From: an uncultured Anaerolineaceae bacterium
GTDB lineage: Bacteria > Chloroflexota > Anaerolineae > Anaerolineales > UBA4823
Direction of reading: 5' to 3'
DNA: 64,000 nucleotides
NCBI GenBank assembly: GCA_964463505.1
Contig: CAYXDC010000002.1
Span: 28,452-92,451, forward strand
The notes under the pieces are model-generated. The model ran no database searches. It was not told the DNA's origin and saw only the letters and a program-made list of their open reading frames with translations. The position numbers and the translations under genes were made by a program. Positions 2,978 through 31,077 of this stretch are shown piece after piece. Positions within the stretch are counted from its first letter, which is position 1; the number at the start of each line of letters is the position of its first letter.

Positions 2978-3985
2978 TTAGATCTGACCGAGAAATAAAT
3001 CACGTCCTTTCACTAAAGCCGCCATTTTACTATCGGCTACCGTACGAGGCAGCATCCAAAAACCACAGTCGGGATGTACCCAACGGATACGCTCGGGTCC
3101 TAGTATCCGGTGACTCAGCTCGATGCGTCTGGCTACTAATTCAGGGGTTTCAATCTCGTTATCCTTAATATCGATCACACCCACCCCCATGGCGATATCA
3201 GGGCGTAGTTCCTTAAAAAGCTCCAACTCATCATAACCACGTCGAGCAAACTCCAATACCACGTGATCTACATTTAGATGGTTGAGGAACCCGAGCAGGT
3301 TGCGCCAAAGACCTTTTTGGATAGATTGCCCCCCATAGTTGCCAAAGCATAAATGCACAGCCTTTTCACCTTTTACAGACGAAAGAACATGGTTGATTGG
3401 TTCATGCGCCCAAGATGCGTCTTCAGGGTGCCCCGGAAGATTGGCTTCATCTACCTGCAAGATGCCAGTGTCAATGTCCGCCATCTGGCGGCGTATCACC
3501 TCGGCAATTGCCATAGCCAGCTCGCGTAGATCATGGTAATGCTCATCCACCAGGGTTTTGGCCAGCATATAAGGGGAGGTTACAGTAAATTTCAGCGGTT
3601 TGGGGGTCAGATTACCGACAAAGCGCCAGGCAGCTGGCAAGTTTAAGCTGCCTTCGCCAATCGGGCCGCGCACAACCCCGGCAGGTTGGCTGCGGAACGC
3701 CATGCCCGGACGATTCCGAAAGTCGTTTAATTCGGTGCGTGAAAGCTGGGTATTGACGTTTTCCATTGGCCGGATGAAATATTCGATCATTCCATTGGTT
3801 TCTGGATGGTTGGGGTCAAAACGGGAGAGTTCGCCGTCGCTGATCACATCCAGACCAGCTAATTCCTGAGTCTTAAGGACAACCAAGATAGCATCCCGCA
3901 AGTGTTGGGTAGTTGGGTACGCGCCTAACCAGGCGGGGATTGGGTAGCTGCCGACAACTGTGGTTTTCAGACTAGGTAAACTCAT
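2978..3985 (-). CDS. Single-barrel cobalamin-independent methionine synthase-like (MetE C-terminal/'core') Zn enzyme
   Basis: TTVVGSYP start, DVISDGE, QVDEA, Zn ligands HLCFG, VLEFA and HPDCG. ATG at 3985 follows SD AGAAAGGA. Confidence 0.85.
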   Translation of the reverse strand: MSLPSLKTTVVGSYPIPAWLGAYPTTQHLRDAILVVLKTQELAGLDVISDGELSRFDPNHPETNGMIEYFIRPMENVNTQLSRTELNDFRNRPGMAFRSQPAGVVRGPIGEGSLNLPAAWRFVGNLTPKPLKFTVTSPYMLAKTLVDEHYHDLRELAMAIAEVIRRQMADIDTGILQVDEANLPGHPEDASWAHEPINHVLSSVKGEKAVHLCFGNYGGQSIQKGLWRNLLGFLNHLNVDHVVLEFARRGYDELELFKELRPDIAMGVGVIDIKDNEIETPELVARRIELSHRILGPERIRWVHPDCGFWMLPRTVADSKMAALVKGRDLFLGQI

Positions 3986-4067
3986 GTGTGGTTCCTTTCT
4001 CATTCAAACGTAGACGATCATTTATTGATAAGGTAGACCTCGTCGCTGAAGCATTCCCGGTAAATGT

Positions 4068-4898
4068 TTAACTATGGCCTAAATAAGCCTGGATAATTCT
4101 TTCCAGGAATACTTCCTGATCCATTGCCCAGTAATGATTAGAGAAGATTTCTACCTCGTGAAAACCGTCGAATCCGGAATTTTCAATCCAGGTCCGGATC
4201 TGGCGCAGCGGGATACAGCCTTCACCCATCAGGCCGCGGTCATTAAGCAAGTCGGTGGTTGGTGATTTCCAGTCACAGATATGATAAGCGAAAATCCGCT
4301 GAGTATCCCCAGCGCGCTGGATCTCGACCTGTAAGTCGGGATCCCACCACAGATGATACACATCCACCACAACACCAAGGCTGGGGCTGTTGAATTGAGC
4401 ACATAACTCATTGGCCTGGCGCAGCGTATTGATTGCTGAGCGGGTGTCAGCATACATGGGGTGTAAGGCTTCAATACCCAGTCGAACGTCGCAGGCAGCT
4501 GCATGCGGTAGGATCGCGGCAATCCCTTCAACGATCTGCTGGCGAGATGTATGCAATGATTGGGATGGGTGGGCTCCAGGGACCAATACTAACAGGGGCG
4601 CACCCAGCTCGGCTGCTTGATCGATTGCTTTCCGGTTGTCATCGATGGCGCGTTGTTGTTGGGATATGTCAGTGGCAGGAAAGAAACCACCTCTGCAGAG
4701 CGAGATATCCTTTAATCCAGCGACGCGGATGTGGGTAGCAATCGCGCTCACAGAATGACCTTCTAAAGCCTGACGCCAGACGGTGATCGCACCGACAGAG
4801 CGCGCCGAAAGCTGCTCAATTGTTGTTTCAATCGGCCAGGGTTGGTGGGTGATGCTATGGATGCACAGGCGGGAGGTATCTCGGATCTGGGAAGGCAT
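4068..4898 (-). CDS. Sugar phosphate isomerase/epimerase-family TIM-barrel (xylose isomerase-like, AP endonuclease 2 fold)
   Basis: Metal motifs GIEALHP, VDVYH, YHICDW, GLMGEG and HEVEIF. The likely start is the ATG at 4898 after GGGAG; the ORF track extends to 5012. Confidence 0.85.
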   Translation of the reverse strand: MPSQIRDTSRLCIHSITHQPWPIETTIEQLSARSVGAITVWRQALEGHSVSAIATHIRVAGLKDISLCRGGFFPATDISQQQRAIDDNRKAIDQAAELGAPLLVLVPGAHPSQSLHTSRQQIVEGIAAILPHAAACDVRLGIEALHPMYADTRSAINTLRQANELCAQFNSPSLGVVVDVYHLWWDPDLQVEIQRAGDTQRIFAYHICDWKSPTTDLLNDRGLMGEGCIPLRQIRTWIENSGFDGFHEVEIFSNHYWAMDQEVFLERIIQAYLGHS

Positions 4899-4922
4899 GT
4901 AAACTGCTCCCTGACATTTAAC

Positions 4923-4995
4923 TTGACAAGCACTCTGTGGGTATGATACCATAGCAAAGACGACAATGGTAAACATTGTGCGATAATGGCGAACA
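4923..4995 (+). promoter_or_regulatory. Putative promoter (TTGACA-N18-TGnTACCAT) and candidate IclR operator palindromes in the divergent intergenic region
   Basis: TTGACA 4923-4928; TACCAT 4947-4952 with TG at 4944-4945; inverted repeat ACAATG-N5-CATTGT 4963-4979; TGTGCG-N7-CGAACA 4977-4995. Confidence 0.45.
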
Positions 4996-5041
4996 CGGTC
5001 GTTGCTGATCATCCATTTTAGTTACCTCATCACCACAGGGT

Positions 5042-5833
5042 TTGCCTTTGAAGACTCAACGCAAGGTTATCGGCTCTGTCCAGCGAGCGCTTGATATCTT
5101 GAATCTGTTTGAGGCTCAGGTCGTTGAGTTGGGGACCACGGAAATCGCGCGTGCCCTCAGCTTGCCGAAAAGCACCATCGCTGGCCTGGTGCATACCCTT
5201 GAGCTAAATGGTTACCTGAACCAAAATCCCGAGACTCGCAAATATTATCTGGGTTTCAAATTGGTCGAGCGCGCCGGTGTACTACTTGGTCAGTTTGATC
5301 TGCGTAAGATCGCCGCACCGGTATTGATGGCGCTGCGAGATGATACAAATGAGAGCGTAAACCTGGCGCTGCGCGATGGTAGCTATGTGGTTTATATTGA
5401 ACGCATGCATGGGATGAACATGCTAGGTATGCGCTCGGAAATTGGCAAGCGCGAGTTAGCGCATTCCACCGCATTAGGGAAATCAATGCTGGCTTTCTCG
5501 CCGGAACATATTCTAGATGACTTCCTAAAAACCCATCCTTTCGAACCGGTTACACCGCAGACGATTACCAGTCCTGCGGTGTTTCTTATTGAAATGAACC
5601 GCACCTGCCAGCGGGGCTTTGCAGTGGATGATCAGGAGAACGAGCTCGGTGGACGATGTGTCGCTGCGCCGATCTTTGATTATACCGGTCAAGTGGTTGC
5701 AGCAGTGAGTATTTCGGTGCCCATACAGCGCTTCCCAGATAGCCGTCTGGAATTATTAGGTGAGCGGGTAAAAGCAGCCGCGGCGGAGATTTCCCGCCGC
5801 TTGGGTGCTGCTCCGCTCCGTCGGTTGCCCTAG
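5042..5833 (+). CDS. IclR-family transcriptional regulator
   Basis: N-terminal 'SVQRALDILNLF...GTTEIARALSLPKSTIAGLVHTL' HTH; C-terminal 'HSTALGKSMLA' and 'GFAVDDQENELGGRCVAAPI'. Confidence 0.95.
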   Translation: MPLKTQRKVIGSVQRALDILNLFEAQVVELGTTEIARALSLPKSTIAGLVHTLELNGYLNQNPETRKYYLGFKLVERAGVLLGQFDLRKIAAPVLMALRDDTNESVNLALRDGSYVVYIERMHGMNMLGMRSEIGKRELAHSTALGKSMLAFSPEHILDDFLKTHPFEPVTPQTITSPAVFLIEMNRTCQRGFAVDDQENELGGRCVAAPIFDYTGQVVAAVSISVPIQRFPDSRLELLGERVKAAAAEISRRLGAAPLRRLP

Positions 5834-5857: not shown

Positions 5858-7366
5858 GTGAACGTGGTTGATCAGGTAGTTGATGTAATTGTGGTTGGTG
5901 GCGGAGGAAGTGGATTGGCTGCGGCCGTTAGTGCAGCCAGTTTTGGGTTGCAGGTATTGCTACTGGAGAAGCAAGCTGAGTTGGGTGGCTCCACTGGAAT
6001 TGCAGTGGGCTCTCTGACCGCCAACCGCACCCGTCTTCAGGAAAAGGCTGGGATTATTGATACCCTGGATGCGCACGCTCTGGATGCAGGGCTTTTTGCG
6101 CCGCCCCAGATCGAAGATCGCAATAACGCCGAATTGCGCCGTTGGTTCTTGAGTCACAGCGCCGAAACGCTGCATTGGTTAATGGATATGGGGTTACAGT
6201 TCTATGGACCTAACCCGGAACCCCCCAACCGATTGCCGCGTATGCACAACGTGGTTCCAGGGGCGAAGGCTTATATTGCAACATTGCAAATCCGCTTACA
6301 GCGCCTGGGTGGGAAGGTATTGACGAACGCCCCGGTGGTGGACTTAATTAGTGAAGATGGGCGGGTGACAGGTGTGGTGGTTCAGGCAGAAAGCAAAATG
6401 GAGCGCTTCTTTGCCCGGCGTGGCGTAGTTCTAGCGGCGGGAGATTACGCCAATTCACCAGCAATCATTGCCCGGTTCAAAGGTAGCCAGTATTCAGAAA
6501 TCGAAGGTATAAATCCGCGTTCTACCGGGGATGGACATCTTCTGGCAGAAGCGGCTGGCGCCAGAATGATCAACATGGATATCACCTATGGCCCCGAGCT
6601 ACGTTTTATCCCACCCTCTGGACGGACTTTTCAACAATTACTCCCGGTGCGTGGTCCATTGGTTCAATTGATGGGCGGGGTCGTACCTTATCTGCCCAAT
6701 TTTGTGATGAGGGCCATGATTCGACGCCTGCTGGTCACCTGGCAGCATCCTGAGATTGCTCTATTTGACGATGGGGCGATCCTGATCAATCAACAAGGCC
6801 AACGTTTCTGTGATGAGCTGCAAACCCCGGAGCGCGAGATCGCTATTGCCCAACAGCCCGGTAAGTCAGCTTATATTCTGTTGGATCAAGGCCTGATCCA
6901 AAAATACAATCAATGGCCTCATTTTATTTCCACTGCTCCGAAGATAGGCTATGCCTATGTCGAGGATTATCTGAAATTGCGCCCGGATGTTGCGGTTCGG
7001 GCTTCTACCTTGCAGGGTTTGGCGGAAAAGCGTCGTCTACCCTTGGTGAATTTGGAACGCTCGGTACGAGAATACAACCATCAAGCGCAGGTGAATGGAC
7101 AGCGCGGTCTGGAAGACGGTGCGTGGGTTTTGCTTGGTCCGACGAAATCTTATTTCACCACTACTGAGGGGGGCGCGGCGATCAACCAGCGTTTCGAAGT
7201 GCTTGATATGGACAATTCGCCGATACCAGGTCTGTATGCAATAGGTCAAAATGGTCTGGGGGGACAAATCTTATGGGGCCATGGCTTACACATTGCTTGG
7301 GCGATTACCAGTGGTAGATTAGTAGGCGAATATCTTGCCGGCCTGCGGGCTGCTGAAAAGACCTGA
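5858..7366 (+). CDS. FAD-dependent oxidoreductase, fumarate reductase flavoprotein/3-ketosteroid dehydrogenase (FAD_binding_2) superfamily
   Basis: VIVVGGGGSGLAAA...LLEK dinucleotide fold, GVVLAAGDY, STGDG, GAILINQQGQRFCDE, PIPGLYAIG. Confidence 0.85.
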   Translation: MNVVDQVVDVIVVGGGGSGLAAAVSAASFGLQVLLLEKQAELGGSTGIAVGSLTANRTRLQEKAGIIDTLDAHALDAGLFAPPQIEDRNNAELRRWFLSHSAETLHWLMDMGLQFYGPNPEPPNRLPRMHNVVPGAKAYIATLQIRLQRLGGKVLTNAPVVDLISEDGRVTGVVVQAESKMERFFARRGVVLAAGDYANSPAIIARFKGSQYSEIEGINPRSTGDGHLLAEAAGARMINMDITYGPELRFIPPSGRTFQQLLPVRGPLVQLMGGVVPYLPNFVMRAMIRRLLVTWQHPEIALFDDGAILINQQGQRFCDELQTPEREIAIAQQPGKSAYILLDQGLIQKYNQWPHFISTAPKIGYAYVEDYLKLRPDVAVRASTLQGLAEKRRLPLVNLERSVREYNHQAQVNGQRGLEDGAWVLLGPTKSYFTTTEGGAAINQRFEVLDMDNSPIPGLYAIGQNGLGGQILWGHGLHIAWAITSGRLVGEYLAGLRAAEKT

Positions 7367-7387: not shown

Positions 7388-8524
7388 ATGATCCAAAGAC
7401 CTGAGCGCGCGGTATTGCGCCCAAAACTTGAGATAGCTTTTGAGTTCGCCCAGCAGCAGGTGCGCGAGCTGATCACCAACCACCCACAGGTTTACCCCAT
7501 GTATACGGAAGGTGGTCAATGGAAGATCGGCGGAGAGACCTGGACTAACTGGTGTGAGGGGTTTCTTCCGGGGATGATGTGGATCTTCCATCGCAGGACA
7601 GGTGATCCGGATTGGCTTGCTGCTGCTGAGCACTATTCACGCCACCTGGAGGAGCGCAAGCACGACCGCACTGTCCATGATCTCGGCTTCTTGTTTTGGT
7701 CCACCTACAAACGCTGGTTCGACTTGACCGGTGATCCGGCCATCAACGAGGTAGTTATTACGGCGGGTAAGACGATGGGATACAGGTTCAAGGAGAAAGG
7801 CCAGTATCTGCGCTCATTTGTAGCGGATGAATCCCTGTTCATCGATATTATGATGAATGTGGGGATTGTTTTTTATGCTGCCTTGCAAAGCGGCGACGCC
7901 GATCTTTTACGTAAGGCTCACCAACATACCCTCACTACCCGGCGTTATCTGGTGCGTGGGGATGGCAGCACATCCCATGAAGGTATTTTTGACCTGGAGA
8001 CAGGTGAATTTTTGCGCCAGACTACACATCAAGGGTGGCGCGGAGATTCATCCTGGGCGCGGGGCCAGTCGTGGGCATTGTATGGCTTTGGCACCTGCTA
8101 TTATCTGACTGGCGACCGGCGTTATCTGGCTACGGCACGCCAGTGCGCTGACTTTTATATCGAGCAAACCCGTTTTGATGCCGCAGCTCCCTTTGGACCC
8201 GGTGTGCCGCCCAATGATTGGTTTGCTCCAACCAGTCAGGTGGAAAGCTCAGCAGCGGCTATAGCCGCCAGCGGCTTGATGAACCTGGCTGCCATATTAC
8301 AGGACCCGTTGTATGCCAACCTCTACTTGAGCGTTGCCCTGACCATTCTGGATACACTGTGCAGCCCAGAATATTTGGGTAAATTTACCCCCGGCTGGGA
8401 GGGTATCCTCAAACATGGCTGTTACCATATTAACAAAGGACTGGGCATGGATGAAAGTGTCATGTGGGGCGAATACTTCTTTGTGGAAGCCTTGCATAAA
8501 GCCTTATCGTTGGAGAACTGGTAA
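7388..8524 (+). CDS. ugl: Unsaturated glucuronyl hydrolase, glycoside hydrolase family 88
   Basis: WCEGFLPG, HDLGF (catalytic Asp88-equivalent), FIDIMMNV (Asp149-equivalent), SWARGQSWALYGF, ESSAAAIAASG, WGEYFFVEAL. No signal peptide. Confidence 0.9.
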   Translation: MIQRPERAVLRPKLEIAFEFAQQQVRELITNHPQVYPMYTEGGQWKIGGETWTNWCEGFLPGMMWIFHRRTGDPDWLAAAEHYSRHLEERKHDRTVHDLGFLFWSTYKRWFDLTGDPAINEVVITAGKTMGYRFKEKGQYLRSFVADESLFIDIMMNVGIVFYAALQSGDADLLRKAHQHTLTTRRYLVRGDGSTSHEGIFDLETGEFLRQTTHQGWRGDSSWARGQSWALYGFGTCYYLTGDRRYLATARQCADFYIEQTRFDAAAPFGPGVPPNDWFAPTSQVESSAAAIAASGLMNLAAILQDPLYANLYLSVALTILDTLCSPEYLGKFTPGWEGILKHGCYHINKGLGMDESVMWGEYFFVEALHKALSLENW

Positions 8525-9304
8525 ATGAGCAGTCAAAGAGTCGCTATCGTGACCGGAAGCAGCCGTGGGATCGGCCGGGGAATTGCCCTGAGTCTGGCAG
8601 AGCGTGGCTGGGATATCATTATAAACTATCACAGCAATGCTGCTGCGGCTGAAGAAGTGCGCCTGGCGGTGCAGGGCTTGGGAACACATGCTTTGCTGGT
8701 GCAGGCTGATCTTGCTAACCTGGCAGACCTGAACCATATGGTGGATGCGACCCTGGAACGCTATGGACGGATTGACCTGCTGGTTAATAATGCCGGCGTG
8801 GGACCGCGCCAGCGTGTGGATTTACTCTCCACTACTGTCGAGAGCTACGACGAAGTTATGGCAACCAACCTGAGAGGCCCTTTCTTTCTTACCCAGCGCG
8901 TTGCCAATGAGATGATCGCTCAATTACAGGCCGGCAAGATCAGTACAGCCCACATTGTCAATATTGGCTCGATTAGCGCCTACACCAGCAGCCCATCGCG
9001 AGCTGAGTACTGCATCAGCAAGGCTGGCGTGGGTATGCTGACGATTGTATTCGCCGACCGCCTGGCAGAGTATGGGATTAACGTGTACGAAATCCGCCCG
9101 GGGATCATCGCCACCGACCTGACCAGCGTGGTCAAGGTGAAGTACGATCGCATGATCTTCGAGGAAGGCTTGACGCCAATCCGGCGTTGGGGCCAGCCGG
9201 AAGACGTGGCCAAAGCAGTGGTTGCAGTTGCCGAGGGCTTGCTGCCGTACTCCACCGGTGAAGTGATTAATGTGGATGGGGGTTTTCACCTCCATCGTTT
9301 GTAA
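8525..9304 (+). CDS. Short-chain dehydrogenase/reductase (PRK12745-like '3-ketoacyl-ACP reductase' subfamily)
   Basis: TGSSRGIG, VNNAG, S...YCISK catalytic motif, VYEIRPGIIATD, DGG terminus. ATG directly follows the GH88 stop codon. Confidence 0.9.
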   Translation: MSSQRVAIVTGSSRGIGRGIALSLAERGWDIIINYHSNAAAAEEVRLAVQGLGTHALLVQADLANLADLNHMVDATLERYGRIDLLVNNAGVGPRQRVDLLSTTVESYDEVMATNLRGPFFLTQRVANEMIAQLQAGKISTAHIVNIGSISAYTSSPSRAEYCISKAGVGMLTIVFADRLAEYGINVYEIRPGIIATDLTSVVKVKYDRMIFEEGLTPIRRWGQPEDVAKAVVAVAEGLLPYSTGEVINVDGGFHLHRL

Positions 9305-15000: not shown

Positions 15001-15003
15001 CGC

Positions 15004-23705: not shown

Positions 23706-24050
23706 ATGGCGAACTATTTGGTCGAGCAGATGGAGGACATCGGAACCATCCGCTGTCCCTGTGGTTTTACGCGGCGGGCGTTTGTAAATACGGAAAATGA
23801 TATAGCCACCCTGCATCTGCTGGATGTCGATGAAGACGCCCGCGTGCATTTCCACGAAACCCTGACCGAGATATATCTGATACTGGAGGGCGAAGGCATG
23901 CTGGAGTTGGACGGTGAGCAGGTCCCCGTAAAGCCAATGACCGCAGTGATGATCAAGCCCGGTTGCCGCCATCGTGCAGTTGGCAAGCTGCGAGTTGCTT
24001 TGGTGGCAATTCCGGCATTTAACCCCGCAGATGAGTGGTTTGACGAGTAA
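23706..24050 (+). CDS. Cupin-domain protein with an N-terminal CPCG motif
   Basis: Cupin motifs HFHETLTEIYLILEGEG and IKPGCRH; RCPCGFTRRAF at the N-terminus. Confidence 0.85.
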   Translation: MANYLVEQMEDIGTIRCPCGFTRRAFVNTENDIATLHLLDVDEDARVHFHETLTEIYLILEGEGMLELDGEQVPVKPMTAVMIKPGCRHRAVGKLRVALVAIPAFNPADEWFDE

Positions 24051-25272
24051 GCAGGCTGCGCAAAGATTAGATGTGCCGGCAACACTGCCCAAACTGGCAG
24101 CTACGCGGCGTTGGTACCATGTAGCAGGAGCGTGGCTGGGCATTGGCACTTCGCCAGGGGCGTTGCTCCTGGGCGCTGGTCTGGCAGCTCGCTATGGCGG
24201 TCCAGTGCCGCTGATTTCGATTCTGCTGAGCGCGCTGTTCATGTTTATCTTGTTGTGGTTCCAGGGTTCATTGGGTCTGGCACGCCCTTTGGGAGAAGGA
24301 TGCAATCTCAACCAAATCACCCCGCGTTATTTTGGAGTTGGCACGCAGCGAATGGTAGGTGCAGTAATTGCTCTGGGGATGGTCGGGTGGCTAGGTTTTA
24401 ATATTGGTCTGGGTGGTGCAGCACTGGGCGCCTTGTTGCGCTTGCCGGATGCGGCTGGGGCATTACTCTTGGGCTTGCCGATTGTCGCATTTTCCTTACG
24501 CGGGTTGCATAGTTGGAATCGCCTGGCAAGCCTGACCACACTGGCAGTTCTGGCTTTGGTGGGTATCATTGTTTCGCTACTGGCTGCGCGGACCATGCCG
24601 GTAACGTTTACCCTGCCGACCCCAGTTGGGTTGGTGACGGATGTTGCGGTTTTTGTAGGCTATATATCGGTATTCACGGTCCGCGCCCCAGATTTCACGG
24701 TTGGTTTACCCTCTCGACGGGATTTATTAGCAGTTGAAGGCTTGTTGATTATCCCAATTTTGCTCATAGCACTGGCGGGAGTCGGCTTGCAGCAAGGGAC
24801 CGGCTCAGCCGACCTGGTGGGAATTCTTGCCGAACCAGGCGGCCTGGCAATTGGCAATCTTCTGGTAGCGATCTCTATCATTGCGCCTACTTTTACCGCT
24901 TTATATTCTGGAGCACCTGCTTTGCAGGCGGCATTCCCAATGCAAGAACGACTGGCAATGCTGATCGTTACCAGCATCGGATTGACTCTGGCAATCCTGC
25001 GTTTTGATCTCAAATTACTGCCTTGGGTGACGGTACTGGCTGCCATGCTGCCCCCCTTGGTTGTACCTCTGGCAGTTGAATCAACCCGCCGCCGGCGGGG
25101 TAATCCCGATCGTTTGATCCCTTTATGGGTCTGGGCGCCGGGTGCATTGTTCTCAATGTTGTTATCCTTGATGCATAATCCCCTCGCCCCTTTGGTGGGG
25201 TTTTTAGTTACTGCCCTGGCAACGGCTAGCTGGTATTTTTTCTCCAGAAGGCGGTTGGAACGCGCCACCTGA
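24031..25272 (+). CDS. Purine/cytosine permease-like (NCS1/APC fold) transporter
   Basis: About 12 hydrophobic segments; 'WLGIGTSPGALLLG', 'GMVGWLGFN', 'APDFT', 'ALYSGA' resemble CodB-type permeases. Start uncertain (ATG 24031 or TTG 24040). Confidence 0.65.
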   Translation: MSGLTSKQAAQRLDVPATLPKLAATRRWYHVAGAWLGIGTSPGALLLGAGLAARYGGPVPLISILLSALFMFILLWFQGSLGLARPLGEGCNLNQITPRYFGVGTQRMVGAVIALGMVGWLGFNIGLGGAALGALLRLPDAAGALLLGLPIVAFSLRGLHSWNRLASLTTLAVLALVGIIVSLLAARTMPVTFTLPTPVGLVTDVAVFVGYISVFTVRAPDFTVGLPSRRDLLAVEGLLIIPILLIALAGVGLQQGTGSADLVGILAEPGGLAIGNLLVAISIIAPTFTALYSGAPALQAAFPMQERLAMLIVTSIGLTLAILRFDLKLLPWVTVLAAMLPPLVVPLAVESTRRRRGNPDRLIPLWVWAPGALFSMLLSLMHNPLAPLVGFLVTALATASWYFFSRRRLERAT

Positions 25273-25293: not shown

Positions 25294-26337
25294 ATGGTAC
25301 TTCCCATGAAAATTGATCAATGGCAAACCTTGCAACGCTGCGCACGTATGGAAGACCCTGGTGCGATCCCAGTGGCGCTGATCGTCGACTCCCCCTGGAT
25401 ACCGGGCTATTTGGGCATTTCGACCCTTGATTACCTGGGCAACCCGGAAATTTGGTTGCAAGCAAACCTGGAAGTGGAACAGCGTTTTCCAGATGTGATT
25501 TTCATGCCCGGTTTTTGGGCTGAAATGGGGATGGCAGCGGAGCCAAGTGGTTTTGGCTGCCGGATGAGTTTCTATGATGACCGCACGCCCCTGGTCCATC
25601 CGTTGCTCGATTCATTAGAGGATGTAGATCAGTTGCACCAGCCTGATCCAACCAGCGATGGGCTAATGCCATTCCTGCTAAACAAGATGCGAAAATTTGA
25701 GCCGCGTATACAGGATGCCGGACATGTCGTGAAAATTGTGGCCGCCCGTGGTCCGCTCGCAGTGGCCTCGCACCTATTGGGGATGACCAACTTCTTGTTG
25801 GGTGTTAAATTGGATCCAGCCAATACCCACCGCCTGTTACGGATTGCCACCCAGACGGTACGTGACTGGTTAGAAGCCCAAGCGAATGCTCTTACTGCCG
25901 CTGAAGGCGTAATGCTCCTGGATGATGTAGTAGGCTTCCTAAGCGAGAAGGACTATCTGGAATTTGCCCATCCTTATTTGAAAGAAATCCTGGATGCGTT
26001 TCCAGGTGCAGTAAAATTTTTTCATAATGATATGGATACAACTGTATCGTTCTCCCATCTGGCAGACCTTGGCATTCATATATTTAATTTCACTCACCTG
26101 CGCAGCCTGGATCGAGTAAGGCAATTGGTCGGGCCGCGGGTCTGTTTGATGGGGAATGTCCCCCCCTTGGATGTGTTGGCGCGTGGCACCCCGCAAGATG
26201 TGTTGCAAGCTGGGCACACCTGCCTGAAACTACACCCGGATCGGCGTGGTTTGATTCTCTCAGCCGGAGGTGGGGTTTCACCAGGTGTCCCGGGTGAGAA
26301 TATCCTGGCCCTATTGGATGCAGTCAGCCAGAGATAA
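25294..26337 (+). CDS. Uroporphyrinogen decarboxylase/MtaA-superfamily protein lacking the Zn-Cys ligands
   Basis: MAAEPSGFGC, ARGPLAVAS, LLDDVVG, FAHPYLKEI, CLMGNVPP, GTPQDV. FFHND and SAGGG stand where HxC and GC are expected. Confidence 0.82.
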   Translation: MVLPMKIDQWQTLQRCARMEDPGAIPVALIVDSPWIPGYLGISTLDYLGNPEIWLQANLEVEQRFPDVIFMPGFWAEMGMAAEPSGFGCRMSFYDDRTPLVHPLLDSLEDVDQLHQPDPTSDGLMPFLLNKMRKFEPRIQDAGHVVKIVAARGPLAVASHLLGMTNFLLGVKLDPANTHRLLRIATQTVRDWLEAQANALTAAEGVMLLDDVVGFLSEKDYLEFAHPYLKEILDAFPGAVKFFHNDMDTTVSFSHLADLGIHIFNFTHLRSLDRVRQLVGPRVCLMGNVPPLDVLARGTPQDVLQAGHTCLKLHPDRRGLILSAGGGVSPGVPGENILALLDAVSQR

Positions 26338-26350: not shown

Positions 26351-27517
26351 ATGATTAAAGTTGCAATCATTGGCTGCGGTGCGATCGCGGACAGCCATAT
26401 ACGTGCCTACCAGAAATTTCCGGCTGAATGTCAGATCGTCGCCCTGGTAGATCTGTATCCAGAGAAAGCTGCCCAAAAGGCACAAGCCTACCAATTAGAA
26501 GCCGCGGTTTACGGCGATTACCAGAACTTGATTGTGGAGCAAGCAGTCGATCTAGTATCGATCTGTCTACCACCCTTTGCCCATGCACCAGCAACCATTG
26601 ATCTACTGAATGCAGGTGTGCATGTGCTGATAGAAAAACCGATGGCAACCTCAGTCGAAGAATGTGACGCGATGGTTCGGGCAGCAGACGCCAATCAGCG
26701 CCTGCTATCGGTTGTGGCTCAGAATCGATTCCAGACCCCGGTCCTGAAGTTGAAACAGGTGCTTGATTCTGGGCGAATAGGGAAGTTGTTACATGCTCAG
26801 GTTGACTCCTTCTGGTGGCGCGGGCCGAGTTACTATGATCTGTGGTGGCGTGGCACCTGGGAGAAAGAGGGCGGCGGTTGTACGATGAACCACGCCGTTC
26901 ACCATATCGATCTATTTCAGTGGATGATGGGCATGCCGAATGAACTTCAAGCGGTAATTGCCAATCTGGCCCATGAAAATTCGGAAGTGGAAGACTTCTC
27001 GCAGACCACATTCTATTATCCCGATGGGCGCATGGGTGTGTTGACCGCCTCACTGGTGCATCATGGAGAGGAACAGCAAATGCTATTCCAGGGAGAGCGG
27101 GCTGCGGTGGGGATGCCCTGGAAGGTGCGCGCTTCTCACCCGCGCCCGAATGGCTTCCCAGATGAAGATACTCAGTTAATCGCCGAGTTACAGGCATATT
27201 TTTCCCAATTGCCTGAGATAACACATATATTGCACGATGGCCAGATTGCGAATGTCCTGGCAGCGATCAGAGGCGAGCAACCACTCCTGTTGGATGGGCG
27301 CGAAGGCCGTAAGACAATTGAATTGGTTATGGCGATCTACCAATCAGCCAGTTTAGGACAGCGGGTTAAGCTGCCGCTTACCCCGTTAGACCCCTTCTAC
27401 ACTCGCCAGGGAGCGCTGGCAAACGCACCCCATTTTCATGCAAAAACCAGCAGTGTGGAAAATTTCACTGACAACAATATCACCTTCGGGCGGGATTTCA
27501 ACTCAAAGCAAGTCTGA
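26351..27517 (+). CDS. Gfo/Idh/MocA-family oxidoreductase
   Basis: VAIIGCGAIA, HVLIEKPMA, VVAQNRF, GGGCTMNHAVHHID. ATG 26351 after AAGGAG. Confidence 0.92.
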   Translation: MIKVAIIGCGAIADSHIRAYQKFPAECQIVALVDLYPEKAAQKAQAYQLEAAVYGDYQNLIVEQAVDLVSICLPPFAHAPATIDLLNAGVHVLIEKPMATSVEECDAMVRAADANQRLLSVVAQNRFQTPVLKLKQVLDSGRIGKLLHAQVDSFWWRGPSYYDLWWRGTWEKEGGGCTMNHAVHHIDLFQWMMGMPNELQAVIANLAHENSEVEDFSQTTFYYPDGRMGVLTASLVHHGEEQQMLFQGERAAVGMPWKVRASHPRPNGFPDEDTQLIAELQAYFSQLPEITHILHDGQIANVLAAIRGEQPLLLDGREGRKTIELVMAIYQSASLGQRVKLPLTPLDPFYTRQGALANAPHFHAKTSSVENFTDNNITFGRDFNSKQV

Positions 27518-27546
27518 ACTGTACGCAGTTTTAGGGAGGATTCATC

Positions 27547-28626
27547 TTGTCCACACAAAAAATTGATGGAATGCGCTACGCACCCAAAGGTAAACCTAAT
27601 CCGGTCTGCCAGAAGGGTGAGTTTCGGGTTGCGGCGATTGGCCTGGATCATGGGCATATATTTGGGATGTGCAATGGGTTGTTAGAAGCCGGAGCTGAAT
27701 TAGCCTGGGTCTATGATCCGGACGCCAAAAAAGTGGCTGATTTTTGTAAACGCTATCCAGATACTCAACCGGCTGCTTCCGCCCAAGCCATCCTGGATGA
27801 TCCTCAGATCCATTTGATCGCTTCCGCCTCAATCCCGGTCCAGCGCTGCTCGTTAGGTTTGCGCGCCATGGAGCACGGCAAAGATTTCTTTGCCGATAAG
27901 CCGCCCCTGATCACCCGGGAGCAATTAGCCCAGGCAAGTGCAAAAGTAGCTGAAACCGGACGTAAGTACGCTGCCTATTATTCAGAACGACTGCACGTGG
28001 AATGTGCGGTTATGGCGGGTGATCTGATCCAGTCCGGAGCAATCGGTCGAGTCTTGCAGGTTGTAAACCTGGCTCCCCATCGACTGAATGCTCCCGAGCG
28101 CCCTGACTGGTTTTTCAAGAAAGCCAGTTATGGTGGGATCCTGATTGACCTGGGTAGCCACCAAATTGAACAATTCCTCTATTATTCTGGCGCTAAAGAT
28201 GCCCACGTGCTGCATAGCAAGGTTGCCAATTACCATAATCCGACTCAGCCAGATTTTGAAGATTTTGGGGATGCAACCTTGATCGCCGATAATGGTGCAA
28301 CCCACTACCTGCGTGTGGACTGGTTCACACCGGAAGGCCTGGGGGTGTGGGGGGACGGTCGTGTCTTTATCATGGGAACTGATGGCACTATTGAGCTGCG
28401 TAAATATATCGATATTGGGCGAGATGGCGAGGGTGATCATCTCTATCTGGTCAACCAAGCAGGTCTGCAGCATATGGCGCTTCATGGACAGGTGGGTTTC
28501 CCGTTCTTCGGTCAGCTCATTCTGGACTGCCTTAATCGCACTGAAAAGGCCATGACACAGGCGCATACTTTCAAAGTGATGGAATTAGCCATTCAAGCTC
28601 AAGAAATGGCTGATAAGATCGCCTGA
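27547..28626 (+). CDS. Gfo/Idh/MocA-family oxidoreductase
   Basis: AAIGLDHGHI, FFADKPP, YSERL, YGGILIDLGSHQ, YLRVDWFTP. Confidence 0.9.
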   Translation: MSTQKIDGMRYAPKGKPNPVCQKGEFRVAAIGLDHGHIFGMCNGLLEAGAELAWVYDPDAKKVADFCKRYPDTQPAASAQAILDDPQIHLIASASIPVQRCSLGLRAMEHGKDFFADKPPLITREQLAQASAKVAETGRKYAAYYSERLHVECAVMAGDLIQSGAIGRVLQVVNLAPHRLNAPERPDWFFKKASYGGILIDLGSHQIEQFLYYSGAKDAHVLHSKVANYHNPTQPDFEDFGDATLIADNGATHYLRVDWFTPEGLGVWGDGRVFIMGTDGTIELRKYIDIGRDGEGDHLYLVNQAGLQHMALHGQVGFPFFGQLILDCLNRTEKAMTQAHTFKVMELAIQAQEMADKIA

Positions 28627-28647: not shown

Positions 28648-30051
28648 GTGGTCAATCGTTTTGATGTTAGCACGGTAGGGGCGCAGTTGTATTTTCTCCC
28701 GGTGGAGACACGCGTCCCATTGAAATTCGGGCCTGAAACATTGACCTCGGTCACCTGCGCCAGGGTATGTTTGCGTGTCCAGGATCGTCAGGGGCGCATT
28801 GCTGAAGGGTGGGGTGAGACTCCCCTGAGTGTGCAATGGGTATGGCCCTGCCAGCTCAGCTATAGTGAGCGGCATTCGACGCTGCAAGAGTTTTCCATAA
28901 TGCTGGTGCAAGCCTGGGCAGAGTTTGGCAAATGGGGTCACCCGCTTGAGATTGGATACACTTTCCAAAAAAAGATTTTACCCGATCTATTGAATCAAGT
29001 AAACAACGCCCGAGCAGACAAGGAGCCAATGCCCTGGCTAGCTGCCCTGGTGTGCTGCTCGGCTTTTGATATTGCTTTGCATGACGCATATGGTATCGTG
29101 AATGGTTTGCCCGTCTATGAGACTTACCAGCCTCCCTACATGAATAAAGACCTGGCAGCCTATTTAAAACCAGGGGACGGGAGTGGAGTATCCTTTCAGG
29201 GTCGATTTCCGGTGGACTTTCTGCAATACCCACCCCCAGCGCTATTGCCCGTCTGGCATTTGGTAGGAGGATTGGATCCTCTCGGAGCAGATGAGTTGAC
29301 CGGTAGTGAACCCCAGGATGGCTATCCGGTCTTATTACGTGATTGGATTACCCGCGATGGTTTGAAATGTCTGAAGGTTAAGCTGCGTGGGAATGATCCT
29401 GTCTGGGATTACACACGCCTGATACATGTGGGACAGATTGCTCTTGAGACGGGTGTTGACTGGCTCACAGCAGATTTCAATTGTACGGTAACCGATCCGG
29501 AATATGTGAACGTGATCCTCGACTCTCTGCTGCAGGAACACCCCCGTCTGTATGGCATGCTTTTGTATGTCGAGCAGCCTTTCCCTTATGATCTGGAACG
29601 CAATCGGATCGATGTCCATAGTGTAGCGGCGCGCAAGCCGCTCTTTATGGATGAAAGCGCCCATGATTGGGAGCTGGTACGACTCGGTCAGAGCCTGGGT
29701 TGGAGTGGTGTGGCTCTGAAAACCTGCAAGACGCAAACTGGAGCGCTGCTCAGCCTGTGTTGGGCCAAAGCGCATGGTATGACCCTGATGGTGCAAGATT
29801 TGACGAATCCAATGTTGGCCCAAATTCCGCATGTCCAGCTTGCTGCGCATGCCGGGACGATTATGGGGATTGAATCAAATGCGATGCAGTTTTATCCGCA
29901 GGCTTCACAAGCGGAGGCGGCAGTACATCCGGGTCTGTATCAACGGAGAAAAGGCAAGCTAGATCGATCTACTCTATCTGGGCCTGGATTTGGCTATCGT
30001 CTTGCAGAAATCCGCCTAAAACTTCCTGATCCTGTAGTTACAGCGAGTTAG
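28648..30051 (+). CDS. Divergent enolase-superfamily (mandelate racemase/MLE-like) protein
   Basis: TRVPLKFG, EGWGETPL, CLKVKLRG, TADFNC, YVEQP, FMDESA, ALKTCKT, GPGFGY. Confidence 0.8.
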   Translation: MVNRFDVSTVGAQLYFLPVETRVPLKFGPETLTSVTCARVCLRVQDRQGRIAEGWGETPLSVQWVWPCQLSYSERHSTLQEFSIMLVQAWAEFGKWGHPLEIGYTFQKKILPDLLNQVNNARADKEPMPWLAALVCCSAFDIALHDAYGIVNGLPVYETYQPPYMNKDLAAYLKPGDGSGVSFQGRFPVDFLQYPPPALLPVWHLVGGLDPLGADELTGSEPQDGYPVLLRDWITRDGLKCLKVKLRGNDPVWDYTRLIHVGQIALETGVDWLTADFNCTVTDPEYVNVILDSLLQEHPRLYGMLLYVEQPFPYDLERNRIDVHSVAARKPLFMDESAHDWELVRLGQSLGWSGVALKTCKTQTGALLSLCWAKAHGMTLMVQDLTNPMLAQIPHVQLAAHAGTIMGIESNAMQFYPQASQAEAAVHPGLYQRRKGKLDRSTLSGPGFGYRLAEIRLKLPDPVVTAS

Positions 30052-30069
30052 GTTGAGGAGGAAAACGTT

Positions 30070-31077
30070 TTGATTAAACGCGTCACCTTGGCAGATGTTG
30101 CTCGTCAGGCAGGTGTTTCCATGCAAACCGTATCACGCGCGGTGCGTAATAAAGACGAGATCAGCACTGAAACACGGGAACGGATCATGGCGATAGTGAA
30201 CGAGCTGGGTTACCGGCCCAGTGGTATCGCTCGCAGCCTGGTCACACAGCGAACAACAACGGTTGGCTTAATGGTTCCCGATATTGCCAACCCGTTTTTC
30301 TCTGAGATTGCCCGGGGTGTTGAGGATACCGCCTATGCCCATGCTTATACATTATTTTTGTGTAACGCGGCTGAAGATATCGAGCGTGAAAAAGCTGCCT
30401 TAAACTCTCTTCTGGAAAAACAAGTTGATGGGGTGATCATCTGCAGCCCGCGCCTTCCAATGACCGATCTATTGGCCTACCTTGAGCAGTTCTACTATGC
30501 CGTAGTATTCAATCGCGATTTAAGCGAAGACATAGATAAGGTGCGGTTGATCTATGTGGATGATCAGGAAGGTACGCGACTGGCGTGGGATCATTTTGTC
30601 CTGCATGGTCATCAGAAGATCGGTATGTTGGCCGGCCCAGTCCAATCGTGGAGCAGCCAGAAGCGGGTGGCGAGCTTCCGTGCTGCATGCAAATCTGCAG
30701 GGCTGGATGGCTGTCTGGAGTTGATCCAGCATTGTATGCCTACCATTGCTGGGGGATTGGAAGGGACTGAACGATTGTTGATTGATCATCCGGAAATTAC
30801 CGCCATCCTCGCTTTTAATGACCTGGTAGCAATTGGTGCCTTACGTATCTGCCAAAAACTTGGCCGAAGGGTTCCTCAGGATATCGAAATAATTGGCTCA
30901 GATGATATCCCCCTGGCTTCTTTAATGACGCCCCCGCTTACTTCACTGCATGTCCCACATCGCACCTTGGGTGTCACTGGTATGCAATCCCTTATCCAAC
31001 TTCTCAATGGCGAAAAACCCGACCCATATCGGATTATTTTTCATCCAGAACTGACTTTGCGCTGCTCGGCGCCTTGA
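30070..31077 (+). CDS. LacI-family transcriptional regulator
   Basis: TLADVARQAGVSMQTVSR HTH, LGYRPSGIARSL hinge, NPFFSEIARG, NDLVAIG, IIGSDDI, PPLTSL. Confidence 0.95.
   Translation: MIKRVTLADVARQAGVSMQTVSRAVRNKDEISTETRERIMAIVNELGYRPSGIARSLVTQRTTTVGLMVPDIANPFFSEIARGVEDTAYAHAYTLFLCNAAEDIEREKAALNSLLEKQVDGVIICSPRLPMTDLLAYLEQFYYAVVFNRDLSEDIDKVRLIYVDDQEGTRLAWDHFVLHGHQKIGMLAGPVQSWSSQKRVASFRAACKSAGLDGCLELIQHCMPTIAGGLEGTERLLIDHPEITAILAFNDLVAIGALRICQKLGRRVPQDIEIIGSDDIPLASLMTPPLTSLHVPHRTLGVTGMQSLIQLLNGEKPDPYRIIFHPELTLRCSAP

Follow-up and report, generated by a model that had tools for sequence, protein, structure and literature searches.

A conserved, separable Chloroflexota catabolic island that may converge on 2-keto-3-deoxygluconate

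A block of approximately 28 kb carrying 26 genes (positions 2978-31077 of the 64,000-nucleotide stretch of uncultured Chloroflexota DNA analyzed here, hereafter the window; ORF listing with Pfam and NCBIfam scans) is a real catabolic island that is repeatedly conserved in Chloroflexota and whose modules are separable. The explanation that we tentatively prefer, with a probability of roughly 45% for the full scheme, is that shuffled catabolic modules feed a single funnel, 2-keto-3-deoxygluconate (KDG). The known part of the island is the route from unsaturated uronates through KDG to pyruvate. Its new aspects are a missing isomerase of the usual kind, an OYE-like partner, deep-branching enolases, heterocycle-class transporters, a conserved LacI-type operator, and an MtaA-like protein that lacks a corrinoid partner. 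Several of the enzyme families are uncharacterized.

Gene content and conservation

The gene families and coordinates claimed in the earlier note were confirmed for all 26 genes by the ORF listing, Pfam and NCBIfam scans, and structure prediction (Table 1); its list had omitted the SDR (g06) and the Zn-ADH (g13). The enolase identity of g16 and the NCS1 identity of g21 have no Pfam match and had to be established from AlphaFold models with Foldseek. Twenty-four genes lie on the plus strand, where gaps between genes are at most about 150 bp. Genes g05 and g06 abut at 8524/8525 and g10 and g11 overlap by 4 bases (14185/14188), just as had been described, and g20 and g21 overlap by 20 bases. The proposed division into three transcription units is backed by strand, spacing, and a sigma-70-like promoter (12/12) in the g13-g14 gap. 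Polysaccharide lyases, sulfatases, and sugar-type transporters are absent among the scanned genes.

Table 1. Island genes and a candidate regulatory site, with window coordinates and supporting matches
Feature	Assignment	Position	Strand	Basis
g01	MetE-like, cobalamin-independent methionine synthase catalytic-domain fold, 341 aa	2978..4003	-	Pfam Meth_synt_2 73 bits; every NCBIfam methionine-synthase model under cut-off
g02	Xylose-isomerase-like TIM barrel (AP_endonuc_2)	4068..5012	-	Pfam 132.7 bits; weak NCBIfam matches only (IolO, QuiC)
g03	IclR-family regulator (KdgR/BhcR/PcaR-like)	5042..5833	+	Pfam HTH_IclR, IclR_C; NCBIfam KdgR 164 bits, under cut-off
g04	FAD_binding_2 flavoprotein (fumarate-reductase/KstD-like)	5858..7366	+	Pfam 151.8 bits; no NCBIfam model at cut-off
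g05	GH88 unsaturated glucuronyl hydrolase, cytoplasmic	7388..8524	+	Pfam Glyco_hydro_88 36.8 bits, above gathering score; PDB UGL 1vd5, E 1e-43, residues 39-370
g06	SDR reductase, candidate KduD/DhuD-type step	8525..9304	+	Pfam adh_short_C2; NCBIfam PRK12745 324.7 bits (cut-off 250, passed); KduD 165 bits, under cut-off
g07	2-keto-3-deoxygluconate kinase	9327..10364	+	Pfam PfkB; top NCBIfam matches KDG/KDGal kinases and kinase half of aldolase-kinase fusion; start from JGI gene call (metagenome contig Ga0105107_10000033)
g08	KDPG/KHG aldolase (Eda)	10390..11076	+	NCBIfam NF005499 323.9 bits (equivalog cut-off 275, passed); Pfam Aldolase
g09	Atypical OYE-family FMN protein, ~482-aa subfamily, KHCHGY motif	11096..12556	+	Pfam Oxidored_FMN, residues 56-275 only; best PDB match E 1e-17 (XenA/YqjM-type enzymes)
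g10	Fused family-I CoA-transferase (FadX/YdiF-like)	12572..14188	+	Pfam CoA_trans; NCBIfam FadX 415 bits, under cut-off
g11	Crotonase/enoyl-CoA hydratase	14185..15000	+	Pfam ECH_1 173 bits
g12	Fumarylacetoacetate-hydrolase-family (FAH) protein	15004..15936	+	Pfam FAA_hydrolase 191 bits; top NCBIfam 2,4-didehydro-3-deoxy-L-rhamnonate hydrolase 164 bits, far under cut-off 500
g13	Zn-dependent medium-chain dehydrogenase	15959..16987	+	Pfam ADH_N, ADH_zinc_N; NCBIfam threonine DH and IolM ~213 bits, both under cut-off
Site	Promoter-like TTGACA-18-TATAAT, then perfect palindrome GTTAGCGCTAAC; candidate LacI operator, unit 2	16984..17027	+	
g14	MtaA/CmuA-family (UroD-fold) Zn methyltransferase homolog	17138..18160	+	NCBIfam TIGR01463 285.6 bits (cut-off 235.4) and NF004889 342 bits (cut-off 244), both passed
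g15	MLE-subgroup enolase-superfamily enzyme	18209..19345	+	Pfam MR_MLE_N, MR_MLE_C; PDB chloromuconate cycloisomerase 1nu5, E 1e-43; no NCBIfam cut-off passed
g16	Deep-branching enolase-superfamily protein, 488 aa	19355..20821	+	AF2 (pLDDT 92.5) and Foldseek
g17	ABC permease, NitT/TauT type	20840..21667	+	Pfam BPD_transp_1; NCBIfam SaoP, SsuC, TauC, all under cut-off
g18	NMT1/THI5-type substrate-binding lipoprotein	21777..22835	+	Pfam NMT1 153.6 bits; nearest PDB 4nmy, THI5/THI13, ThiY 3ix1; lipobox LIAGC (by eye)
g19	ABC ATPase	22910..23686	+	Pfam ABC_tran
g20	Metal-type cupin, 114 aa, CPCG motif	23706..24050	+	Pfam Cupin_2; PDB 4h7l (function unknown) E 1.6e-21, Pac13 E 7e-5, KdgF E 0.33
g21	NCS1-fold (CodB-like) permease	24031..25272	+	AF2 (pLDDT 90.5) and Foldseek (best CodB 7qoa, TM 0.72-0.74; Mhp1)
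g22	Second UroD-fold protein	25306..26337	+	Pfam URO-D 147.8 bits; PDB UroD E 7e-10, MtaA 5e-6
g23, g24	Two Gfo/Idh/MocA oxidoreductases	26351..28626	+	Pfam
g25	Enolase-superfamily paralog of g16, 467 aa	28648..30051	+	Weak Pfam MR_MLE_C 36.5 bits
g26	LacI-family regulator	30070..31077	+	Pfam LacI, Peripla_BP_1/3

The island had been called an orphan, a description overturned by syntenic islands in several Chloroflexota MAGs. The window itself is JGI metagenome contig Ga0105107_10000033. Among the comparators, all of which are MAGs or metagenome contigs, another Chloroflexota genome (L086) shares the gene order starting at the IclR gene and continuing as far as the g16 ortholog, at which point the retrieved locus stops, and large parts of the island recur in at least eight further loci. 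Orthologs in L004, L030, L021, L082, and L012 are 55-80% identical to those of the island. One compact same-strand cluster in L170 reads CoAT-ECH-MtaA-ABC-cupin-NCS1-Gfo-GH88-SDR-OYE. Other loci retain less: L087 has a bare GH88-SDR-KdgK-Eda-OYE unit followed by the gluconate-type genes LarA_N, FGGY, and 6PGD, L088 is missing GH88 and the enolases but has the remainder of the island, and L169 has SBP-ATPase-Gfo...DUF993-TIM-NCS1 and nothing further. A uronate-isomerase-like gene (by eye) takes the place of g25 in L004, and the CoA module varies between loci. Co-occurrence in other phyla had been put forward as a check, and the whole gene combination does not recur outside Chloroflexota. Elsewhere just the pair of g16 enolase and MetE-like gene stays linked, with homologs of the two directly adjoining in seven loci from four phyla.

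The uronate core and its accessory modules

The GH88, KdgK, and Eda core that had been proposed for the unsaturated-uronate to KDG to pyruvate route is real as judged from family assignments. No signal peptide is evident by eye in g05. By family thresholds, the PfkB kinase g07 phosphorylates KDG and Eda converts KDPG to pyruvate and glyceraldehyde-3-phosphate. The SDR g06 would be the KduD/DhuD-type reductase. With E. coli KduI and RpiB as queries, tblastn over the window and 2.44 Mb of related loci gave no match to a KduI/DhuI-type isomerase; RpiB is possibly too distant for DhuI, and a kduI or dhuI gene could be located elsewhere in island-bearing genomes. As of December 2025, the DHU isomerases in the literature are of the KduI and DhuI types only (PMC12838403). 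Because no such isomerase was found in these sequences, the OYE-like g09 is placed provisionally at this point, where it might perform or substitute for DHU-to-diketo isomerization or act at another DHU step. Its active site is ene-reductase-like, with HGY kept and Lys replacing the first His, which counts against an isomerase role, and we know of no OYE with ketol isomerase activity.

The g09 subfamily comprises more than 120 clusters at 67-85% identity, and its named members are Chloroflexota. This OYE-like protein is a recurrent partner of SDR and GH88. In 81 OYE-anchored metagenome loci, the g06-type SDR is the commonest neighbor (27/81) and GH88 is present in 19/81; GH88>OYE>SDR and similar orders are found repeatedly, and no gene accompanies the SDR/OYE pair more often than GH88. 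Among OYE-like loci with enough flank, the SDR is missing from about 60% and GH88 from about 80%, which counts against our preferred explanation, as does the loss of GH88 from L088.

The CoA-transferase, crotonase, FAH, and Zn-ADH would act on an organic-acid co-product in the form of its CoA thioester. The earlier suggestion that an aglycone passes through CoA chemistry is conjectural. The CoA-transferase gene is kept after the OYE gene in L004, L086, L088, L094, and L170. The flavoprotein g04 has an identically placed ortholog in L086, and longer relatives lie beside OYE/SDR genes in L088, L117, and L145.

The cupin, three MLE-type enolases, Gfo oxidoreductases, and TIM barrel may act by oxidation, elimination, or dehydration, either readying the uronate moiety or processing a second one. 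Both "long enolases" noted earlier were borne out, g16 by its high-confidence model, which Foldseek matches to MR/MLE enzymes (probability 1.0, 12-16% identity), and g25 by its approximately 25% identity to g16 homologs. They are deep-branching enolase-superfamily paralogs with no characterized relative. Sequence matches to g16 are absent from Pfam, NCBIfam, and PDB, its KxK, D, E, D, and K residues are conserved, and none of its 7,647 homologs is named for a function more specifically than as a generic enolase-superfamily member. In g25 the same KxK/D/E/D/K motifs are seen by eye, and 1,555 cluster representatives are related to it at E <= 1e-3. In other phyla the g16 family occurs in unrelated settings, beside amidohydrolase, M20 peptidase, or uricase-like genes, a further point against the preferred explanation. 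Orthologs of g23 and g24 are found in L004, L021, L030, and L082, and those of g02 lie within the Gfo/enolase module in L021, L082, L086, and L169.

The substrate is predicted to be a small molecule and not an oligosaccharide, and would enter by the ThiY-like ABC importer and the CodB-like NCS1 permease. Both transporter classes are known for pyrimidine-like N-heterocycles as cargo, which gives some basis for the idea of an N-heterocycle aglycone. To our knowledge, neither NMT1 nor NCS1 transporters carry uronides, which counts against the preferred explanation, and a "modified uronide" is a plausible candidate substrate. The permease g21 has no sequence match in Pfam or PDB; its family has 142 sequences, with named members from Chloroflexota except one from Egibacteraceae (Actinobacteria).

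Competing explanations

A supercluster of independent small pathways, which would be neighbors only because all end at KDG/pyruvate or lie in a genomic hot spot, is a less probable but serious competitor. It could combine unsaturated-uronate conversion to KDG, Gfo/TIM/enolase oxidation-dehydration of a sugar or cyclitol, a short-chain acid CoA route, and heterocycle uptake or modification. The earlier proposal of one joined pathway gains support insofar as uptake, GH88/SDR/OYE, and CoA genes share the L170 cluster, and is weakened by the divisibility seen in L087, L088, L169, and the variable CoA module. The two or three regulators, the three transcription units, the replacement of g25 in L004, and the gluconate-type genes trailing the L087 core likewise suit separate pathways. 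Linkage nevertheless persists through repeated rearrangement in at least nine loci, and the small NCS1-like family is nearly always on contigs that also bear OYE-like or g16 genes. Chance accumulation of functionally unlinked genes has the heterogeneity of enzyme families in its favor and nothing beyond. This negligible prospect is already refuted by synteny, given the conserved L086 order, conserved co-occurrence at 45-80% identity across nine or more loci, and a conserved candidate operator that is identically placed in four genomes.

A main role in breaking down a methylated or sulfur-bearing small molecule (such as a DMSP-like sulfonium, methylthio compound, or methylated heterocycle), with the uronate genes as neighbors, is improbable. 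Here the cupin would be a lyase, acrylate or 3-hydroxypropionate would be removed by the CoA-transferase, crotonase, and Zn-ADH, and methyl transfer to a thiol would fall to the MtaA-like and MetE-like proteins. Acrylate is handled by Acu and Dmd genes, to whose products the family-I CoA-transferase, crotonase, and MDR dehydrogenase might be likened, and the ABC system falls in the NitT/TauT (sulfonate/taurine) class. The "Zn-thiol chemistry" attributed to the island is predicted from fold and metal motifs: g14 passes the MtaA/CmuA cut-offs and retains H-x-C ... C (by eye), and g01 retains His-x-Cys, Glu, and Cys (by eye), whereas no H-x-C ... C motif is seen by eye in g22. Neither a corrinoid protein nor an activase is found among the scanned island genes, a search for a cobalamin riboswitch found none, and the cupin matches DddK at just E 0.51. 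In addition, the syntenic islands compared lack the MetE-like gene, and the compact L170 cluster holds GH88, SDR, and OYE together with MtaA and the cupin. Comparably doubtful is conversion of a cyclitol or neutral sugar to KDG by Gfo-type oxidation and enolase-type dehydration, with GH88 as an optional side entrance, by analogy with the inositol-to-tagaturonate-to-KDG route of Thermotoga or with deoxy-sugar routes of the diketo-hydrolase kind. The two Gfo/Idh/MocA genes, the weak IolO match of the TIM barrel, the IolM-level score of the Zn-ADH, the rhamnonate-pathway match of the FAH, the lack of GH88 in L088, and the uronate-isomerase-like gene of L004 are consistent with such a route. All of those NCBIfam scores are far under equivalog cut-offs, however, the transporters are not of sugar or cyclitol type, and the SDR/OYE pair is partnered most often by GH88.

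Regulators and a candidate operator

Under the preferred scheme of modules converging on KDG, unit 1 would be controlled by the IclR regulator, whose gene is placed identically in L086, L088, and L094, and unit 2 would be repressed by LacI at the candidate GTTAGCGCTAAC operator. A LacI gene lies upstream of the MtaA gene in L004, L030, L086, and L088. Apart from the two copies of the window itself (L001, L002), just three of 174 loci carry the core TTAGCGCTAA, namely L004, L086, and L088. In every case it has the Zn-ADH gene on one side and the LacI/MtaA genes on the other.

Gene content and conservation of the island

The gene content that the earlier note had described for this part of the window was confirmed by an ORF listing and by Pfam and NCBIfam scans, and its gene list proved accurate apart from the omission of an SDR (g06) and a Zn-dependent dehydrogenase (g13). 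Of the 26 genes (g01 to g26, hereafter the island), two lie on the minus strand and encode a MetE-like protein (g01) and a xylose-isomerase-like TIM barrel (g02). The remaining 24 occupy the plus strand with intergenic spacing of at most ~150 bp; the g05/g06 junction is an exact abutment, and g10 runs 4 bases into g11. The three MLE-type enolase-superfamily genes that had been named are also present, as an ordinary MLE (g15) and two long proteins (g16 and g25). The remainder of the window holds genes assigned by domain scans to housekeeping functions (SecA, DnaE, methylmalonyl-CoA mutase, MeaB, PRPP synthetase, Fpg and phosphofructokinase), and the island is therefore chromosomal. An identical region occurs in the JGI wetland-sediment metagenome samples 3300009087 (contig Ga0105107_10000033) and 3300009053.

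Conservation was evaluated in 80 loci fetched from species-representative genomes by a search anchored on g16, with recurrence of the window proteins scored by tblastn. Large portions of the island recur at 45-82% identity in six Chloroflexota loci (L004, L012, L021, L030, L072 and L082). Further loci came from Pfam-annotated neighbourhoods of homologs of the OYE-like protein g09 (L086, L087 and L088) and from an anchor on the NCS1-like permease (L170). The fetched part of L086, which stops at the g16 ortholog, follows the gene order of the window from the IclR gene onward. In L088, the order is IclR, a Liv-type ABC system, and then SDR-KdgK-Eda-OYE-CoA-transferase-crotonase-FAH-ZnADH-LacI-UroD-ABC-cupin-permease, with neither GH88 nor enolases in this Pfam-annotated locus. 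Only GH88-SDR-KdgK-Eda-OYE is found in L087, followed by gluconate-type genes, and L170 has a compact same-strand run of CoA-transferase-crotonase-MtaA-ABC-cupin-NCS1-Gfo-GH88-SDR-OYE with a g25-like gene alongside. Random accretion, the possibility against which the earlier note had set its proposal, is thus refuted by synteny in related loci, in that linked modules recur in other Chloroflexota genomes. These modules are linked through repeated rearrangement, yet separable. The whole combination was not found in other phyla, where the MetE-like g01 is the only island gene that follows g16 homologs, and the island is a conserved trait of the Anaerolineae-type Chloroflexota lineage. All comparisons are among uncultured genomes and at the level of family homology. 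In L004, the position behind the Gfo genes that g25 would hold is occupied by a 470-aa ORF, which by eye resembles uronate isomerase (UxaC).

The uronate core and a candidate DHU enzyme

In GAG and pectin degraders, the route through DHU (the unsaturated-uronate product upstream of 2-keto-3-deoxygluconate, KDG) proceeds from UGL (GH88) by way of KduI or DhuI and KduD or DhuD to KdgK and KdgA/Eda, often under the control of the IclR-type regulator KdgR. The island shares with this pathway a GH88, an SDR reductase, KdgK, Eda and an IclR-family regulator in one transcription unit, with identical end products, and together these genes look like the classical conversion of an unsaturated uronide via DHU and KDG to pyruvate and glyceraldehyde-3-phosphate. 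The assignment of g05 to GH88 derives from Pfam PF07470 (36.8 bits; gathering score, 26.6) and from a match to the Bacillus unsaturated glucuronyl hydrolase 1vd5 (E 1e-43) that is nearly full length at residues 39-370. The motifs HDLGF and IDIMMN, putative sites of the two catalytic Asp residues, were spotted in this protein by eye, and no signal peptide was seen by eye. Eda (g08) exceeds its NCBIfam equivalog cut-off (323.9 bits against 275). For the kinase g07, the top NCBIfam matches are KDG kinases, every one of them below its cut-off.

Several features set the island apart from the DHU pathway. Its SDR is not a KduD equivalog (165 bits on the KduD model against a cut-off of 339), and an OYE-like protein (g09) and a FAD_binding_2 flavoprotein (g04) are encoded inside the unit. 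The island contains no polysaccharide lyase, sulfatase, PTS or sugar ABC transporter, its uptake genes being of the NMT1 and NCS1 types; likewise, no polysaccharide lyase, sulfatase, esterase or oligosaccharide/sugar-type transporter accompanies the GH88 gene among the proteins scanned across the window. Nor was a KduI- or DhuI-type isomerase detected in the island. No protein scanned from the window gave a Pfam match to the KduI/IolB or RpiB/LacAB families, and tblastn queries with E. coli KduI and RpiB found zero matches in the window and in 2.44 Mb of related loci, a set in which a KduD query found SDRs in 52 loci. According to a survey of December 2025 (PMC12838403), KduI and DhuI, which are not homologous, are the only two isomerase types known. 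The island is a member of the uronate/KDG catabolic clusters, as a variant with several uncharacterised enzyme families.

The OYE-like g09 is a candidate for the missing step. Its Pfam match to Oxidored_FMN (78.5 bits) covers just profile positions 13-229 of 342, and it belongs to a strongly conserved subfamily of ~482 aa with the invariant motifs QLTHSGR, HGY, VRFS and GLGR. The FMN-binding motifs of OYE are retained in this subfamily, whereas the first His of the substrate-binding pair (H-x-x-H/N) is replaced by Lys (KHCHGY). Of 81 metagenome loci anchored on homologs at 55-70% identity, 27 contain an SDR gene and 19 a gene of the GH88 family. With the count restricted to the 41 loci that have two or more genes on either flank, an SDR lies no more than three genes away in 17 and a GH88 gene in 8. 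The arrangements GH88>OYE>SDR and SDR>GH88>OYE are repeated, often with an MFS transporter, and more than half of the g09-type loci have other neighbours. Because no isomerase was detected in the window or the related loci and g09 keeps company with SDR and GH88 genes, the best inference from sequence is that g09 would act on DHU or an immediate derivative, with the SDR completing the conversion to KDG, although an isomerase may be encoded elsewhere in these genomes. A literature search for a connection between Old Yellow Enzyme and DHU returned nothing. If correct, this assignment would make g09 a candidate third enzyme type for the DHU-to-KDG step, beside KduI and DhuI.

Two other settings of OYE-like genes were observed. 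In ten loci (L090, L110, L111, L115, L125, L138, L144, L149, L164 and L165), the gene is paired with one encoding ~321 aa whose sole match is a weak one to DUF993; a DUF993 gene also lies beside a TIM barrel and an NCS1-like permease in L169, and no literature on DUF993 was found. In a different lineage (L128, L133, L143 and L157), MFS-SDR-GH88-OYE is followed, as judged by eye, by an ApbE flavin transferase, a small membrane protein and a TAT-signal Gfo/Idh/MocA oxidoreductase, which forms another recurring cassette built on the GH88/SDR/OYE trio.

Long enolases, transporters and methyltransferase-like proteins

The long protein g16 (488 aa) has no Pfam, NCBIfam or significant PDB sequence match. 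Its AlphaFold model, built on 30 homologs (mean pLDDT 92.5), matches MR/MLE structures in Foldseek with probability 1.0, TM scores of 0.58-0.77 (target-normalised) and 12-16% identity, and by this predicted fold g16 falls in the mandelate racemase/muconate-lactonising branch of the enolase superfamily. In the family alignment, K227, D261, E296, D325, K348 and K351 are invariant and K229 is nearly so; they correspond to the KxK motif, the trio of acidic metal ligands and the paired Lys residues, each at the strand end where it would be expected. Similarly, g25 (467 aa) has a weak Pfam MR_MLE_C match, marginal PDB matches and, by eye, the same KxK, D-E-D and K motifs; because it matches g16 orthologs in tblastn at ~25% identity, it is a distant g16 paralog. 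Both therefore share fold and catalytic pattern with the MLE subgroup (muconate cycloisomerase, OSBS, N-acylamino-acid racemase and dipeptide epimerases), of which g15 is a normal member, but g16 and g25 are ~100 residues longer, only 12-16% identical to any solved structure and without a characterised member, and their gene contexts vary between phyla. Neither has an NCBIfam match that would indicate a characterised function, and their homologs carry only generic enolase-superfamily labels. The two proteins thus represent large enolase-superfamily clades that have no characterised member, the g16 clade alone comprising more than 7,600 sequence clusters from many phyla.

Homologs of g16 in Latescibacterota, Verrucomicrobiota, Planctomycetota, Gemmatimonadota and others occupy differing contexts. 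When the genes flanking g16 homologs were clustered without bias across 80 genomes from other phyla, M20 peptidase, amidohydrolase, 2-hydroxyacid dehydrogenase, sulfatase, TIM barrel and uricase-like genes came up, and these varied contexts pointed to no single function; the g16 family probably has more than one. One recurrent partner is MetE-like. Genes 50-68% identical to g01, which itself retains the MetE-type His/Cys/Glu/Cys positions, adjoin a g16-type enolase in seven loci (L005, L006/L084, L010, L049, L057, L065 and L079) labelled Chloroflexota (including Anaerolineae), Planctomycetota, Verrucomicrobiota and Omnitrophota, and in L084 the run is MetE-like, enolase and a uricase-fold gene. 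The MetE-like protein and g16 look like a conserved pair that is independent of the island. A distinct conserved g16 setting was also seen in Latescibacterota (L014, L025-L027, L031, L034, L037, L038, L062, L064, L069 and L073-L075), where the neighbours, by eye, are an amidohydrolase, an M20-type peptidase, a D-2-hydroxyacid dehydrogenase, a sulfatase and a SelA/DgaE-like gene.

The transporters invite comparison with HMP/FAMP salvage by ThiXYZ/CytX and with CodB. The binding protein g18 is an NMT1/THI5-family lipoprotein whose closest solved relatives are 4nmy, THI5/THI13 and the pyrimidine-binding ThiY; papers citing 4NMY do not give its ligand. For g21, no Pfam, NCBIfam or PDB sequence match was obtained, but its model (pLDDT 90.5) is nearest in fold to CodB (TM 0.72-0.74) and then to Mhp1, which makes it a predicted NCS1-fold permease at only 16% sequence identity to CodB. 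Its homologs are labelled "purine-cytosine permease-like" in JGI data. They form a small family of 142 sequences, whose named members are from Chloroflexota save one from Actinobacteria with an uninformative context (L174), and the family appears to share contigs with OYE-like and g16 genes. Unlike the salvage systems, the island genes lie in a catabolic unit under probable LacI control, and an Rfam scan of the entire window found no riboswitch, neither TPP nor cobalamin, which argues against thiamine-type salvage for these transporters and also against cobalamin control. The transporter classes, as judged from sequence and fold, point to a small, possibly pyrimidine-like solute and not to an oligosaccharide.

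Corrinoid-dependent methyl transfer, as in MtaABC, the O-demethylases and CdmBCA, was suggested by g14, which passes the NCBI MtaA/CmuA family cut-offs (TIGR01463, 285.6 bits against 235.4; NF004889, 342 against 244) and by eye has an H-x-C ... C motif. Some O-demethylases have MT1/MT2 pairs, and the island likewise has a second UroD-fold protein, g22; this protein lacks the Zn-thiolate motif of g14. No B12-binding domain or corrinoid protein was found in the 26 island genes or in the Pfam-annotated syntenic loci L086, L088 and L170, so that neither the island nor these loci encode a standard corrinoid methyl-transfer system. The island also lacks an activating enzyme and a cobalamin riboswitch. 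Comparison with CdmB, a chloromethane methyltransferase, was uninformative for the island, and a search of the literature on 4-O-methylglucuronate demethylation found nothing relevant. Thus, g14 represents a testable lead, an MtaA-family protein with no visible corrinoid partner.

Regulation and a proposed entry route

The only sizeable gap, between g13 and g14, contains a 12/12 match to TTGACA-18-TATAAT, a sigma-70-like promoter, directly followed by the perfect palindrome GTTAGCGCTAAC, which has a single exact copy in the window. Beyond the window's own two copies among the comparison loci (L001 and L002), its 10-base core TTAGCGCTAA occurs, out of 174 loci, in L004, L086 and L088 only, and each time it lies between the Zn-ADH gene and the LacI/MtaA genes. 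From its sequence and placement, GTTAGCGCTAAC is a probable LacI operator controlling the unit that begins after this gap. In L012, L021, L072 and L082, regulators of the GntR/FadR type, which are typical of sugar-acid catabolism, stand in the place of LacI.

Positions of the island, the putative regulatory elements and other features
Feature	Sequence	Positions	Strand
Island, g01 to g26	window	2978-31077	both
Sigma-70-like promoter with palindrome GTTAGCGCTAAC	window	16984-17027	
Core TTAGCGCTAA	L004	6622-6631	
Core TTAGCGCTAA	L086	15623-15632	
Core TTAGCGCTAA	L088	15749-15758	
UxaC-like ORF	L004	19580-20992	
Low-G+C stretch	window	20000-22000	
Two small adjoining ORFs	window	31112-31933	-
BTAD/AAA/TPR regulator gene	window	32742-35654	
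SecA gene	window	49591-53745	-

The presence of GH88 points, by family membership, to a 4,5-unsaturated uronide as a substrate. The island has neither a lyase that would make such a compound extracellularly nor a transporter of a type known to import it. Members of the enolase superfamily remove the proton beside a carboxylate and drive out a substituent at the beta position. Given this chemistry, an enzyme of that superfamily (or the cupin g20) could form the 4,5-double bond intracellularly from a saturated uronide. The cupin is a single domain of ~114 aa with His/Glu metal motifs, as are KdgF, which acts on 4,5-unsaturated uronates, and Pac13, a nucleoside-5'-aldehyde dehydratase (uridine-5'-aldehyde), and its cluster is also uronate-related. 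The similarity is weak (Pac13, E 7e-5; KdgF, E 0.33), and the one close solved relative, 4h7l, has no known function. Roles for g20 as KdgF or as a DMSP lyase, with PDB E values of only 0.33 and 0.51, were kept as ideas and not as findings.

In the route that we propose, a small saturated uronide with a pyrimidine-like aglycone would be imported by the ThiY-like ABC transporter and by the CodB-like permease, after which g25, g16, g15 or the cupin would abstract H5 beside the carboxylate and eliminate the 4-substituent to give an intracellular 4,5-unsaturated uronide. GH88 would then carry out the deglycosylating step, and the flavin-dependent OYE-like enzyme and the SDR would provide a third, non-homologous solution for the conversion of DHU to KDG. 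Taken as a whole, this reading is speculative, and we would give it a probability of about 0.12. Methylated inositols, 4-O-methylglucuronate, lactyl-ether uronates, nucleoside uronic acids, glucosinolate-type thioglycosides and ergothioneine were weighed as substrates, and none is asserted. The interpretation in the earlier note, that a modified uronide is degraded with its sugar passing through KDG, stands in part: the GH88/KdgK/Eda core and the non-random linkage of the genes agree with it, whereas recurrence of the combination in other phyla, which the note had proposed as a check, was not observed. Chloroflexota of the Anaerolineae type abound in sediments, sludge and soils; most of them are uncultured, and their diet is poorly known. 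The binding protein g18, the LacI protein g26 and the predicted operator offer direct experimental handles on the substrate.

Some minor features of the window were also recorded. Across the ABC permease and binding-protein genes, G+C drops to 0.477, compared with ~0.52-0.58 in most other 2-kb stretches of the island. Just past the island are two small adjoining ORFs of 135 and 137 aa, one of which matches COX1 weakly and below threshold; a DUF166 gene and then a 970-aa BTAD/AAA/TPR regulator come next. The SecA protein, at 1,384 aa, is ~50% above the usual length, and its DEAD and P-loop domain matches are spread over far more residues than the profiles, which suggests that it carries large insertions.
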